Positions 43,401-52,400 of a DNA stretch of 64,000 bases are shown in pieces. The stretch's first letter is position 1. Each line of letters starts with the position of its first letter. The stretch lies in the NCBI RefSeq assembly GCF_053078305.1, contig NZ_CP166879.1; one strand, written 5' to 3'. A program made the position numbers.

Positions 43401-46400
43401 CACATTACCGATGCGCATAGCCCGTAAATACCGCACCTATTTCGGGAAAGGTGCAGATCGCGAGACGTTACGCAAAACCAACCGCGATTTACGCTCGGCA
43501 TTTACTGCCCTGCAACAGGGCAAACGGCTGAACGTCCGGCAGCAGTCAGCGATGCGTGATTTACCGTCCTGGTCTGAACTGATTGATGCCATTCGTGACG
43601 GTGTTGAGTGGTACAACAACCGGCCGCACGATGAATTACCGGTGAAGCCGAACGGCAAGCATTACAGCCCGGCGGAGTTCAGAAAAAAACGCCTGGCGGA
43701 AGAGGACACGGAAATTGAATGGCTGTCCGATGTTGAGCTGCGGGATATGTTCCGGCCGATGGTGGAACGCCCTGTAAGACGCTGTGAAATACGCTGGCTG
43801 AATAATATTTACTACGCGCCCGAGCTGCGTGACGAGCATGGTCGTAAGGTGCTTATCAGCTATGACATTCATGATGCCGAACGAATTACCGTACGTCGCC
43901 TGGATGGCAGCGTGATTTGCGAGGCGGTATGGGACGGTAATAAACGCGAAGCCTTCCCGGTTAGTGCGGAATACTACAAACAGCAGCAACGCCTTAAAGG
44001 CATGCGTAAACGCGCAGAGGAAAAAATCCGTGATGCCGAGGATGAGGTTGTCAACGTGCTGGAGCACAAGCCGCAGGAGCCCTGGCTGGAAAACATCTAT
44101 CGCCCGGTAGGTAATACGGTGGCCGTTCAGCAACCGGTCGCTGACGATGAACCTGATGAAGAATACGAGCGTAATTTCCAGCGGGGATTGCAGTTGCTGG
44201 AAGCGAAATTAAAAGAAAATGACCCGCTGGCCTGAAATAAAAAAATAACCCGAGCGGCGACTCAGGTTATTTGATTAAACAAGGTATCAAATGAGAGGTT
44301 AATAATATGACTGATATTAACGATGTAATCAAGACCATTGATGAACTTATTGATGGCGGCGTACTGACGCAGTATGCCATCGCCAGAGAGGCGGGAATTT
44401 CCGACGGCACATTATCGGCTTTCCGTAAGGGAAAATATAAAGGCGATAACGCTGCTGTGGCTGCTTCCCTGCGTTCCTGGTATGAGAACTGGAATAAACA
44501 AAGCGCACTGCCGGAACCGCCGCAGTTTGTGGAAACGCAGACAGTCCAGGAGCTGCGCGCACTGTTTCAGGCGGTTCGTCTGATGGGCTGTATTAACGTT
44601 ATTGTGGGCGTACCGGGTGTGGGTAAAACGGCCACTGCCCGTAATTACTGCCAGGAGCAACCAAACACCTGGATGATCACCCTGTCACCCGCGCACTCCA
44701 GCGTCACGGAGTGTCTGCTGGAGCTGGCCGATGCGCTGGGGATTGATTACACCCGCGCGAACAAAGGGGCATTATCCCGCGCCATCCGCCGTCGCCTGAT
44801 GGGAACGCGTGGACTGGTGATTGTGGATGAGGCGGATCATCTTGGTATTGACGGTCTGGAGCAACTCCGGGCAATTCAGGACGCCACGGGGATCGGGATG
44901 GTGCTTATTGGTAACCCGCGCGGATTGTTTAAAGGTGGACGCCGCGCCTTTGATGATTTATCGCGCCTGTTCAGCCGTCTTGCCCGTACAAAACAACTTC
45001 GCAAGGCCAAAAAGGCGGATGTGCTGGCCATTGCCAGGGCATGGGGTATCAGTGGTGAGGCCGAGCTGGCCGTCATGCAGGCTATCGCTGAAAAGCCCGG
45101 TGCGTTACGTGTTCTGACACATACGCTTAACCAGGCGTGGCTCACAGCCAGCGGTGAAGGCGCGGCGCTGACAGAAAAACATATTAATGCGGCCTTTAAA
45201 GAGGTTTATACCAACCCTGAATTACTCTCACAGGTGTGATTATGGCGGTATTTAATATTCCTGATATTTACGGACGCTTTTACCTGGTTAATTTCGATAA
45301 CGTGAAGGTGATTTCACTGGCCGAAAATAAAGAATGTGGCGATTTACTTTTTGAATTTAATGACCGCACACGAATGGTGATATCTGCCGGACTTGATCGC
45401 GAAGGTGCGACAGACGTTTACAGCGGAATATGCCGTTCTGTTGGTGCGAAACAAGTCAGCTAAATGAGGTGTTATATGAATATGCAATCCTGCGGTAACA
45501 AAATGAATTTATTCGACTCCCTGAACAGCGCGCGCCGTCTGACCGAACTTGCCGGTGCGGTACTGGAACGCAGTAAGCGCTATCCGCAACGTTTTGCACT
45601 GAAAACCACGCCGCCGGTAGGCAACGTGCAGGGAACCGGTGAAATTGAAATCACCATACAGACCAACGGCCTGCGCCGCCGTGTGAAGGCCACCCGCATC
45701 AGCGGCTGCACGGTTTACTGGGAGGTGTGAGGTGAAAAAAAATCTCATTGCATGGGCGTGGTCGAGTGGTCTTATTGAGTTTGGTTACGTCCTGCCGGAA
45801 GGTGCATTGCCGATAGTTGCCGGAAAGCCTGTCACGGTACGGCATGTGATTGAGGTTATGGCGCGTCATGGACGTGATGAACAGGAGCAGTTACTGGTTC
45901 CGGGGATACCGGAAGCGGTGACGGAGGAAGAAGCCTTTAATGCCATGATTCGGTTCTGCCGTGAGGTCAGACGCCGGGTCAGTTATCCAAACAGAACGAG
46001 GACCAGAGGATGAGTAAAGTCGTACGCATTATTTTCGAATACAAGGAGCACGTTATCCATAAAAACGCTGATGGAACAGTGCGCATGGGGGTAAGTCTGG
46101 ACATACGTTCAACCGGGATAAAGCAGAAAGGTGATGGACCCGCCATGATTTTTGGAGTGGTTATGCTCGCGGAAAGCAGAGACTTTGCTGAACTTGTGGC
46201 AATGAAAGCCAGTGCGCTCATGAAAGATATGAGCATGCGTTCCGGGGTTATTAAAGGTAATGAATTTAATCAGCAGGGGTAATTCCATGAGCAAAGTACG
46301 CGTTATTTTTGAATTTAAGCATGTTTCGCATGACGAAAAACCGGCAGGTAATGACTGTGTTGAAGTGCATGAAAAGATTGGTGTGGATGTAAAAACAGAA

Positions 46401-49400: not shown

Positions 49401-52400
49401 TCTGGTATGTGCCGCCGGAATGTCGGTTTGTGGCGGAACGCTGACCGGTGTTTATTTCGGGGATTTGCGCGGTTATCCCTGGCATTCACTGGATGACGCA
49501 TTTCCGCCTGATATGGAGGCAGTCGTGCTGATTGTTCAGTATGGTGACCAACAGGAACTGCGCATCGGCCATATGGGGTATGAAGGCTTTTTTATTGATG
49601 AAGAAACCGGAGCCTGCCTTGAAGATGAGGACGGACAGGTGACGCACTGGTGCCATATTTCAGCTTTACCGGAATGACGGGAGGTGAATGCGTGAGAAGT
49701 TATATTGATAATGAAAAACTGAAGACAATCAGCGACTGTCTTAGCTTGCTGGCAAAAATAAAAGAAACCATTGAAGAGATTAAATTTCAGCTTGAATACG
49801 CACCCTGTGGTGATGATACATGGCGTAACTCTGCCAGAAAAGCACTGGCTGTCTTTCAGAAACAACGCCGGACTGTTGAATACCGCCTTGCTGTATTACG
49901 CCAGGAGGAAAAGGAAAGAAATATAAGATGTCACGAGCGCGTTAATAACTTCCTTGTTCGTGAATTAAAAGAACGTGTGCCGGAGTCGGTATTTTTTGAG
50001 TGTGAGGCTGTTGCCCGTAGCAAAGCACTGGAAACTGATTAAACAGGCAGGTGAATGATGAGTATTGAATTAAGATCGTCTTATGAATATCGTAAAATTC
50101 TCATCGCCGGAGGCATGAAACCGGAAGATGCAGAAAAAATTGTTTCTTTTATGGATAAAGAATGTGACAAACGGGATATGCCAGAAATTATTATGGATGA
50201 CATGATTCTGCATTCAGCCGTAGCGTTAAGCCCGTTATGGATTGTGCATTCTCTTGCTGAAATTGCCAAAGGCACCGATAAACAGGCAGCTGTTGCTGCC
50301 CTTCAGACGCTTAATGAAATGCGTATATCTCCACGCCCGACATTAATACATATGATTCTCTCCAGTATGGAGGATAAAGCAAATGAATAGTCTACCCGCT
50401 GGATGGGCGCGGCCACTAATGGCCAGGAAGCATCATTTTTTTAAAACAGGCGAAAATATCAGTATATGTGGACGGTGGTTATATCTGGCTCATAATCGCG
50501 AGCCGGATACATTTGAAAGCCCTGATGACTGTGCCGAATGCCGCAGAAGAGTGAATAAGGAGAAAGATAATGGACAATAGTTCTCTGTTGTTCTGGTGCT
50601 TATATATCACATCCTTTTTCGGCGCATTTGTTATTACCCGGTGGTTATGTCGAAAAATCATCTGCTTTTTTGATAAAAGACATCCGGTTGAACGGGCGGC
50701 TGATGCGCTCATTCAGCAGGCCATTGTGTTATATAGCGGTGAATTTTTCTGCCGGATAACAACCAGAGATGGCTGGCACATAATGATTATTCCGCCAACA
50801 CACCATGCCCGGTGGGATGAGGCAGAAAAGGCTTTCCATGTCCGTAAAAAGGTAAATACGGTATGAGAGGAAAACTGATATCCGCCATTCATGTGGCAAA
50901 GCGCGAGCTTGCCCTGGATGATGAGACCTACACATTCGTACTACTGGCAGCCACCGGCAAAACCAGTTGCCGGGATATGTCACCCGGTGAGTTATCCCGC
51001 GTGCTGGATGTTTTCAAAAAACGCGGTTTTAAAGTGCGTCAGAAACCGGTTAACCGGGCCTTAAAACCGGGTACGGTGACCGCCAGAATTCGCGCCATCT
51101 GGAAAGTGATGCACCGGCAGGGCTTTATCTCTGATGGTGCGGAAACCGCTCTTAACCGCTGGGTGAAATCGCAGACGGCCGCGCAGAACGGCGGCGAAGG
51201 TGTGGCAAACTGGCAGTGGCTGGAGCAACACCCCGCCCTGGCCTCAGATGTGCTGGAGCGTCTCAAGCGATGGCACCGCCGCAAAATGCTGGCCGCGATG
51301 GGAATGCCCGAACGCACGCTGATGGGGTATGACGCCGTTTGCAGGCAGTATGAAAAATCACTTCCCCGTTAACCCCAAATCCCGCCACAACGCGGGATTT
51401 TTATTTTAAACTTACCGGGAACGCGAGAACCGGAGGCTGATATGGCAGAAACTCAGATGAGCATGTTTGGTGGTGACAGTGAGCAACTGCACGCCCTTAT
51501 CGACCGCCTTGATGACATCCCTGATGATGTTCTCAAAAAGAACTGGCCGCGGACCCTGTCAGAACTGGTTGAAGTCACCGGCGCAGAACTTCAGCGTCAG
51601 GGGATTGAGCCGGTACTGGCCGGTAAACTGGCACGCAAGGTGGCTGCGGCTCAGGCAGCCTATATGGGCGGACGGGGTTATTACCTGCCGGTCGGGGAAT
51701 CTCTCTTTGCCGAGCTGCGAAACAATGAGATATTTTCGCGCTGGGACCGGGGCGAGAAGATTGAATCCCTTCGCCGCCATTACCGGATGTCAGAAACCCA
51801 GATTTATACCGTCATACGTGAACAGCGCCGTCTGCATCTGGCAAGAACGCAACCGCCACTTTTCTGATATTCCGCAAAGCCTGCCGCCTCTCCTTCACCG
51901 TTACGCTGACTCAGAGAACATCATGAGACAGCGTAACAATGCCAAAACTCCCCGCACCACTGCGTAAAAAGCTGATTGCCCTTGTTCTGGCCGGTGCCGG
52001 GACGTTCACGATTGCCACGCATTACACCGGTTACTGGGAAGGGAAAGAAAACTCCACGTATATCGATCCCACCGGTACACCCACCATCTGTTACGGCCAT
52101 ACCGGCCCGGATGTGAAACCGGGTATGACCCTGACAGATGAAGAATGCCTGGAACTACTGGAAAAGGACATGAAATGGGCCTTTGCGGCCATTGATCGGC
52201 GTGTTCAGGTGCCGCTTACCCGTGGTCAGACGGTGGCGCTGGCTTCGTGGATCTTCTGGGCCGGTGAAACGAACTTTCGCAACTCCACGCTTCTGCGCCT
52301 GATCAATGCCGGGCAGATGCCCGCGTCCTGTAAGCAGTATATCCGCTGGATTTATTCAAAGGGGGTGAAACTTCCCGGCCTTGAGGCCCGCCGTTCGGCG

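Follow-up and report, generated by a model that had tools for sequence, protein, structure and literature searches.

The 64,000-nucleotide stretch of contig NZ_CP166879.1 (RefSeq assembly GCF_053078305.1) analysed here, hereafter the window, carries at 45242-50866 (+ strand) a block of 15 co-directional open reading frames (ORFs), named o01 to o15, between a homologue of the phage Mu transposition gene B and gemA. The block is very probably an ordinary semi-essential early (SEE) region, belonging to a common Mu-like prophage and made up of small early genes that are independent of one another. It shows two features of a Mu-type SEE region: it lies on the + strand between B and gemA/mor, and it contains homologues of both kil and gam (o06). 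These flanks and homologues bear out the sequence-only reading of this DNA, which had called the block an early accessory region of a Mu-like phage. That reading had also nominated the block as an undescribed system. Instead, its genes are present or missing independently of one another in phages with B proteins that are 98-100% identical, and there is no sign of one machine.

Fifteen closely packed genes

The ORFs encode proteins of 65-183 residues, and their starts match the NCBI annotation (PGAP) of a 98.3% identical Escherichia coli locus. They are separated by 1-15 nucleotides or overlap by 1-11 nucleotides, and about 97% of the block is coding. The sole exception in spacing is a 97-nucleotide spacer 3' of gam (47123-47219). 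A purine-rich ribosome-binding site precedes every one of the 15 ORFs. All 15 match a PHROG family, with E values from 1e-32 to 1e-105. Comparison with diverged homologues in 67 IMG/VR loci showed purifying selection on each of them, with median ratios of nonsynonymous to synonymous substitution (dN/dS) between 0.09 and 0.53; A and B gave 0.06-0.09. Because of the PHROG matches and this selection, the ORFs are taken as real genes. Tight packing of small ORFs from B to gemA had been noted from the sequence and is confirmed; the accompanying count of some 14 genes is right without gam and one short with it.

The sequence of the block is already known from public records, mostly as hypothetical proteins. 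Over its full length it shares 97.2% identity with a phage record already deposited ("inserted Bacteriophage Mu-like phage"), and it is found at 97-98% identity in 212 of 5,426 complete E. coli genomes, where the copies are annotated as 13-14 hypothetical proteins and Gam. With these copies and a PHROG for every ORF, the block cannot be called undescribed sequence. Among the closest known systems are the Mu-like prophages of E. coli, both Shiga-toxin-producing and other. In O91:H21, O157:H7 and other chromosomes, 97-98% identity extends across the whole block, the same 15 genes are annotated, and the locus shows essentially no difference. Sp18 of O157:H7 Sakai, itself outside this comparison, has been assigned to the Mu-like prophages of Shiga-toxin-producing E. 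coli (PMC2669165).

Comparison with the SEE region of Mu

The SEE region of Mu (kil...gam...gemA, Mu genes 5-16) has the same position from B to gemA/mor, the same orientation and the same packing. Homologues of Mu kil, gp7, gp9, gam, gp11, gp12 and gemA are present here, and the spacer after gam is conserved together with its hairpin. In contrast, Mu has 11 genes where the block has 15. No Mu counterpart is seen for o01, o03, o07 and o11-o15, and Mu gp6, gp8, gp13, gp14 and gp15 are absent from the block. Moreover, the block has two copies of the gp7-like gene, its gp9-like protein is roughly double the length, and Kil comes second after B instead of first as in Mu. At the DNA level, similarity to Mu is limited to about 500 bp around gp11/gp12 (73%).

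The flanking genes are of the Mu type. The B homologue (44307-45239, +), an AAA+ transposition protein, is 48% identical to Mu B and is annotated as "AAA family ATPase" in the 98% identical locus. On the right, gemA (50863-51372, +) matches the Pfam GemA family (7.6e-29) and its product is 43% identical to Mu GemA.

One gene of the block with experimental precedent in Mu is gam (46592-47122, +). Its 176-residue product matches the Phage_Mu_Gam profile over its full length (PF07352, 7.7e-42), is 57% identical to Mu Gam over 175 residues and has a dN/dS of 0.10. Gam is a Ku-like DNA-end-binding protein that shields linear phage DNA from RecBCD. Another such gene is o02 (45476-45730, +; 84 residues; dN/dS 0.11), a Kil homologue that belongs to phrog_2679 "Kil" (6.6e-46) and aligns with the C-terminal half of Mu Kil (33% identity, E 1e-4). 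In Mu, Kil is responsible for host killing and inhibition of cell division.

Two consecutive genes are counted as Mu gp7 (E6)-like. The product of o05 (46287-46580, +; 97 residues; phrog_2230; dN/dS 0.35) is connected to Mu gp7 by a BLAST chain through intermediates (E 2e-9, 1e-15 and 6e-40); direct hhalign comparison of the o05 family with gp7 was not significant (E 0.052). Its neighbour o04 (46010-46282, +; 90 residues; phrog_4107; dN/dS 0.27) aligns with the o05 family in hhalign (probability 66%, E 5.5e-5) and is probably a paralogue of o05. Direct comparison of o04 with the gp7 family was likewise not significant (E 0.015), and o04 is counted with Mu gp7 because of its link to o05.

Downstream of gam, o08 (47766-48299, +; 177 residues; dN/dS 0.15) encodes a Mu gp11 homologue that is 68% identical over its full length. 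This exceeds the values for A (31%), B (48%), Gam (57%) and GemA (43%). The Pfam scan of the ORF set gave one Gp11_C match (PF25754, 4.3e-40) without naming the ORF; we assign it to o08, since o08 is the gp11 homologue. The same scan gave a weak AsnC-type helix-turn-helix match (5.7e-3), again without naming the member. The o08 product may consist of a winged helix-turn-helix (wHTH), for which the N-terminal signal is weak, followed by a Gp11_C domain. The next gene, o09 (48299-48814, +; 171 residues; dN/dS 0.17), overlaps o08 by 1 nucleotide, and its product is 55% identical to Mu gp12 (E13) over its full length. All 78 gp12 homologues found carry PF26885, a recent Pfam family; those with a named source come from E. 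coli and Salmonella. A literature search on DUF5420, to which the preceding gene o07 is related (see below), PF26885 and PF25754 found no functional study.

Last in this group, o10 (48818-49369, +) encodes a basic protein of 183 residues (isoelectric point, pI, 10) of phrog_323 "transcriptional regulator" (1.2e-58). Residues 66-166 are 32% identical to Mu gp9 (E8; E 1e-8). Three helix-turn-helix-like repeats are seen by eye in o10, which self-BLAST did not confirm. Near-identical loci label the protein "DNA-binding protein" or "AsnC family protein". Both gp11 (o08) and o10 are probably DNA-binding proteins. Thus, to state that only gam is recognisable was too strong, since Kil and homologues of Mu gp7, gp9, gp11 and gp12 were also identified.

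A backbone with exchangeable cassettes

Gene order from B to gemA was mapped in 48 related loci. The backbone across these loci consists of o01, kil, the gp7-like genes, Gam, gp11, gp12, o10 and o11. Around it, content varies even among phages whose B proteins are 98-100% identical. In this group, o07 is present, swapped for a 24% identical allele, or absent. Genes o11-o12 and o13-o15 are present or absent, o12-o15 may be missing or replaced by homologues of Mu gp13/gp14, and Mu gp8-like genes alternate with o03. More distant relatives have DUF550-like genes in the right-hand part in place of o12-o15, and DUF3164 (Pfam 5.9e-77) in the Gam slot. The latter is a protein of 204-253 residues and was observed at the Gam position in loci L041-L046, L052, L053, L058, L060, L063-L066 and L069. 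Its position suggests that Gam and DUF3164 are alternative solutions for one task.

Natural deletions were also observed. In locus L036 (9887-10138), an in-frame deletion has removed kil and left the beginning of o01 fused to the end of o03, so Kil is not required in at least one prophage that is otherwise nearly identical. The same deletion accounts for a relationship between o01 and o03 in our clustering, which we rejected as an artefact of the fused gene. Another natural deletion apparently fuses gp11 to the tail of gp12. A 183-residue gp11 homologue from related loci ends in the last residues of Mu gp12 (...VNNGKQ), and locus L047 has a gp11 gene of this length and no gp12. Since a deletion appears to have removed gp12, this gene is not always kept with gp11.

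Independent presence and absence among near-identical phages thus identifies these as accessory genes and not as parts of an obligate multi-gene machine. In the maps of the 48 loci, the right-hand part is a mosaic in which cassettes are exchanged, which fits genes that interact with the host.

The o03 family and the "host nuclease inhibitor" label

The product of o03 (45732-46013, +; 93 residues) is a widespread small alpha/beta protein, a typical early gene product of transposable phages. A word-based search retrieved only 7 close relatives, whereas exhaustive searching retrieved hundreds. When ten concatenated ORFs were compared with 1.84 billion representative proteins, nearly all of the 650 matches came from o03. 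By these sequence matches, the representative clusters of the family in transposable-phage early regions number in the hundreds. The relatives are stand-alone proteins of about 90 residues, or fusions with varied domains. Of six diverse homologues whose surroundings we looked at, three lie in Mu-like early regions, with the gene right after B or near Gam/DUF3164, one lies in a small-gene array in a different kind of phage, and two are on contigs too short to judge. The family is also present in a Burkholderia podophage. No Pfam-A family matches o03. Its best fold match is to MbtH-like proteins, to which clear structural and sequence similarity was not found.

Some records name proteins of this family "host nuclease inhibitor". 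The likely source of this label is the annotation of phage D3112. There, the 266-residue "gam" product consists of Gam (residues 1-161) and an o03-like segment (residues 176-248, 43% identical). o03 aligns to residues 176-248 only and has no match to the Gam Pfam family. In DMS3 and JBD69, the o03-like segment is a separate gene downstream of gam. Thus, because of the fused D3112 gam annotation, the label on o03 is an annotation transfer and not evidence of function. The single D3112 gene (L071 3976-4776) facing two genes in DMS3 (L072 675-1476) is either a true fusion or a frameshift in the record. Like the present block, the early regions of the Pseudomonas transposable phages (D3112, DMS3 and the JBD series) have Gam and an o03-family gene (43-50% identical). 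In DMS3, the o03-like gene directly follows gam, whereas o03 stands three genes upstream of gam here. The remaining small early genes of D3112, DMS3 and JBD phages are unrelated to those of the block.

o01 and the right-hand genes

The first gene of the block, o01 (45242-45463, +), encodes an acidic protein of 73 residues (pI 4.85; phrog_3375, 8e-47; dN/dS 0.16). Its identity is 52-62% in relatives with a B protein of 62-79% identity; both o01 and o13 have few relatives.

At the other end, o11 (49366-49677, +; 103 residues; phrog_6925; dN/dS 0.09) is very acidic (pI 4.05), with 19 Asp/Glu against 2 Lys/Arg. In phages with B proteins of only 62-79% identity, o11 still shows 80-83%. Matches to DUF551 obtained by running Pfam on homologues (independent E 0.28 and 0.049) are too weak to use. 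Hybrid proteins were also observed: P0008 and P0036 join the first ca 45-80 residues of o11 to an o13-like or DUF550-like C-terminal part, and gene x05 in L041-L046 and L052 is also a hybrid with the o11 N-terminus. This conserved N-terminus seems to be a recombination joint between cassettes.

Four genes follow. The 116-residue product of o12 (49692-50042, +; alternative GTG start at 49650; phrog_6158) falls with its homologues into about 17 clusters at 50% identity that have the motif RLAVLRQEEKE in common, and is also found in the non-Mu phages Fraca and AsXd-1. A homologue of o13 (50058-50390, +; 110 residues; phrog_1988; dN/dS 0.16), 36% identical, occurs in SfMu and in Yersinia Mu-like phages. 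o14 (50383-50580, +; phrog_2358) encodes a small Cys/His-containing protein of 65 residues. Its homologues form about 19 clusters with the pattern GWxxPxxxRKxHYF...SLCGRW...DDCxxCRRK, in which the conserved cysteines and histidine are a possible metal site. They are also found in unrelated Klebsiella, Pantoea, Shigella and Pseudomonas phages and in non-mobilizable plasmids of ca 48 kb that look like phage-plasmids. A DUF3039 match to o14 (0.077) is too weak to use. Finally, o15 (50570-50866, +; 98 residues; phrog_17269; dN/dS 0.14) has a predicted N-terminal transmembrane helix, with a hydropathy maximum of 1.82 at residues 5-23. Pfam searches on homologues of o01, o04, o05 and o11-o15 gave nothing significant.

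Possible roles against host defence

Besides Gam, at least one uncharacterised gene might encode a new inhibitor of host defence (restriction, abortive infection, CRISPR or other systems). This proposal overlaps the best explanation; we regard it as a tentative possibility, with the acidic o11, the fast-evolving o07 and the swappable o12-o15 as best candidates. The genes beside Gam are early, small and variable, and cassettes turn over among near-identical phages. The strong acidity of o11 is a trait also of DNA-mimic inhibitors. o07 has the highest dN/dS of the block (0.53) and alleles that are only 24-40% identical. Both o12 and o14 are shared with unrelated phages, and o14 with the ca 48-kb plasmids as well. 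In addition, Gam-family proteins were reported to counter or trigger defence systems (preprints 10.1101/2024.04.14.589459 and 10.1101/2025.08.30.673261).

The family searches argue the other way. No ORF other than Gam matched an anti-defence, defence or solved-structure family in PHROG, Pfam, NCBIfam or PDB sequences. Apart from Kil, the o10 regulator and the unsupported label of o03, the non-Gam ORFs belong to PHROGs without an assigned function. A Pfam scan of the 16 proteins returned only Gam, Gp11_C and GemA, and NCBIfam returned nothing above noise for any ORF. The 14 non-gam ORFs, concatenated, had no match in a PDB sequence search (best E 0.42). PADLOC defence models were run on ten ORFs (o01-o05 and o07-o11, with o12-o15 left out); the only match, a weak one to a homing endonuclease (0.0063), came from o10. 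With respect to characterised inhibitors (Ocr, ArdA, anti-CRISPRs, Tad, Gad and others), Gam alone showed similarity in the general family libraries. Furthermore, o11 is among the most conserved genes of the block, unlike an arms-race gene. Since only Gam matches a known anti-defence family, the anti-defence idea is an argument from analogy, and by that analogy such roles are plausible. The sequence-only reading had set it against the case in which all the ORFs are homologues of characterised housekeeping phage proteins; this is not what was found, most of the genes having no characterised homologue.

The o07-gp11-gp12 trio

The product of o07 (47220-47762, +; 180 residues; phrog_2260), the gene under the loosest constraint of the block, is, as judged by profile comparison, probably a divergent DUF5420 member. 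A direct Pfam scan of o07 gave no match. A profile that includes o07, against which its own cluster scores 6.6e-65, retrieved 136 E. coli and Salmonella proteins, most of them carrying PF17457 or named "DUF5420 family protein". o07 and the retrieved DUF5420 proteins have in common an almost invariant C-terminus, IKHSE(F/Y)(I/V)A(L/I)TEE. Alternative alleles of o07 are found in related phages, and some near-identical phages have no o07.

o07 may also be related to gp12. By eye, the two proteins have N- and C-terminal motifs in common. Their hhalign alignment is collinear from end to end (134-154 columns), with a score of 20-21 against 20.7 for the best unrelated control. An AlphaFold2 model was computed for o07 and o09 fused by a flexible linker, from 29 collinear alignment rows with arbitrary pairing (mean pLDDT 84.8). 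When the order of secondary-structure elements is read along the model, it is the same in both halves: strand, helix, two strands, a variable part, two helices, three strands and helix. The variable part is a hairpin in o07 and an irregular loop in o09. Foldseek searches of the AlphaFold database with the o07/gp12 model retrieved many uncharacterised Gammaproteobacteria proteins of 170-200 residues. Entries named "Eac protein", "Ead/Ea22-like" and DUF5420 match with E values of 1e-5 to 1e-8 and TM-scores on the target of 0.6-0.7; the Eac and Ead/Ea22-like entries are only 12-18% identical to o07/gp12, and structures are predicted on both sides. According to the model, o07 and gp12 may have a common fold, one that lacks a solved analogue. 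Distant paralogy of the two is suggested mainly by the element order in this one fused model.

These observations raise the question of whether o07 (DUF5420), gp11 (wHTH) and gp12 form a coherent module of two same-fold proteins and a DNA-binding protein, maybe carrying one of the unmapped early functions of Mu (arm, cim) or acting on a host target. The genes are adjacent, with 3 nucleotides and then a 1-nucleotide overlap between them, and an o07-like gene lies 5' of gp11 in several Mu-type phages. In addition, gp11 is the early protein most conserved with Mu, at 68%, where A, B and Gam reach 31-57%. The collinear alignment and the common element order of o07 and o09 fit this proposal. However, the association is not obligatory: Mu and some near-identical prophages have no o07, and some relatives have no gp12. 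The hhalign score falls within the range of unrelated controls, and any interaction is hypothetical. We consider such a module rather unlikely. A more elaborate version has a slightly lower probability still; in it, the trio would be an undescribed enterobacterial Mu-like module (for arm, cim or counter-defence) and o03 a partner of Gam or DUF3164 that helps to protect or process the ends of phage DNA.

Two improbable readings: lysogen protection and chance open frames

Some of the genes might protect the lysogen through superinfection exclusion or prophage defence, for instance the membrane protein o15 or a cim-like immunity gene. The N-terminal membrane helix predicted for o15 is consistent with this idea, as is a small membrane protein, x07 (61 residues), encoded in a nearby slot of related phages. 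The SEE region of Mu is said to hold the immunity-control function cim (PMC4553209). However, the PADLOC models gave no significant match on the ten ORFs searched, which do not include o15 (best 0.0063, o10). Moreover, because they lie within the repressed early operon, the genes of the block would be silent in a lysogen. Lysogen protection thus appears improbable.

A reading of many of these ORFs as frames open by chance is extremely improbable: they are short and ten lack an assigned function, but the PHROG matches (E 1e-32 or better for each) and the dN/dS values throughout the block refute this, ribosome-binding sites are found at all of them, and of the ORFs listed on the opposite strand, up to 138 residues long, none is annotated as a gene in the 98% identical PGAP locus.

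Transcription signals and surroundings

The block would be the distal part of the early operon, transcribed after ner, A and B and ending at a hairpin past gemA. A consensus scan of 41000-52500 found 15 terminator-like sites, no excess over the 13.3 expected from shuffled sequences. The best-formed site on the + strand is located at 51377-51400, just 3' of gemA, with a 9-bp stem containing 5 G-C pairs and a T-rich tail. This hairpin is the probable end of the early transcript. If it is functional, mor (51442-51867, +) is not on the gemA transcript. In Mu, the early transcript runs through mor.

A second hairpin, GGCGC...GCGCC (47163-47191, +), is found in the spacer after gam. It is conserved, along with an AT-rich stretch, in Mu and in a relative whose B is 54% identical. 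Its outer stem is invariant, with no covariation and no T-run. Because there is no covariation, an RNA structure and a DNA site are indistinguishable here, and the hairpin might serve as a site for a protein, for RNA processing or for pausing. Rfam identified no RNA family in the 40-53 kb region.

Upstream of the block, homologues of the c repressor, ner and A are found, with transposase A at 42148-44235, upstream of B. A Mu-type left end is located near 40898-41130, apparently within a host gene. It starts with TGTAACC..., followed by repeated TTTGATACC-like motifs that are probable transposase sites. The left end abuts the open end of a probable host membrane-protein gene, and the right end lies beyond the window. 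The host also carries an O11-type O-antigen cluster (wzx, wzy, gmd and glycosyltransferases; 2500-14500 in the window) of low GC content (26-38%). This stretch is 99.8% identical in several E. coli genomes.

Implications

Taken as a string of accessory genes in a Mu-type SEE region, the block falls into four components. The first comprises the homologues with experimental precedent in Mu, namely Kil, Gam and, just outside, GemA. The second is a backbone shared with Mu, made of the two gp7-like paralogues, the o07-o08-o09 trio and the triple-HTH gp9 relative o10. The third is o03. The fourth is the right-hand accessory set o11-o15, in which near-identical phages carry other cassettes in place of o12-o15. 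Most likely, each uncharacterised gene acts singly, on a process of the host or on the early development of the phage itself.

Three points weigh against this description. For the ten of the 15 genes without an assigned function, "independent accessory genes" describes evolution and not biochemistry. The packing of o07, o08 and o09 is tight enough that the three could act together. Finally, the single-operon organisation is deduced from gene packing and the consensus scan only.

The value of the block lies in a short ranked list of candidates for experiments. Among them, gp11 deserves attention as a protein better conserved with Mu than the transposition proteins are. The list also includes o07 and gp12, for their possible common fold, and o03, for its large family and unsupported label. 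For anti-defence screens, it would be reasonable to begin with the acidic o11 and the swappable o12-o15. Fixing the label of the o03 family would remove an annotation error that is now spreading through phage records.

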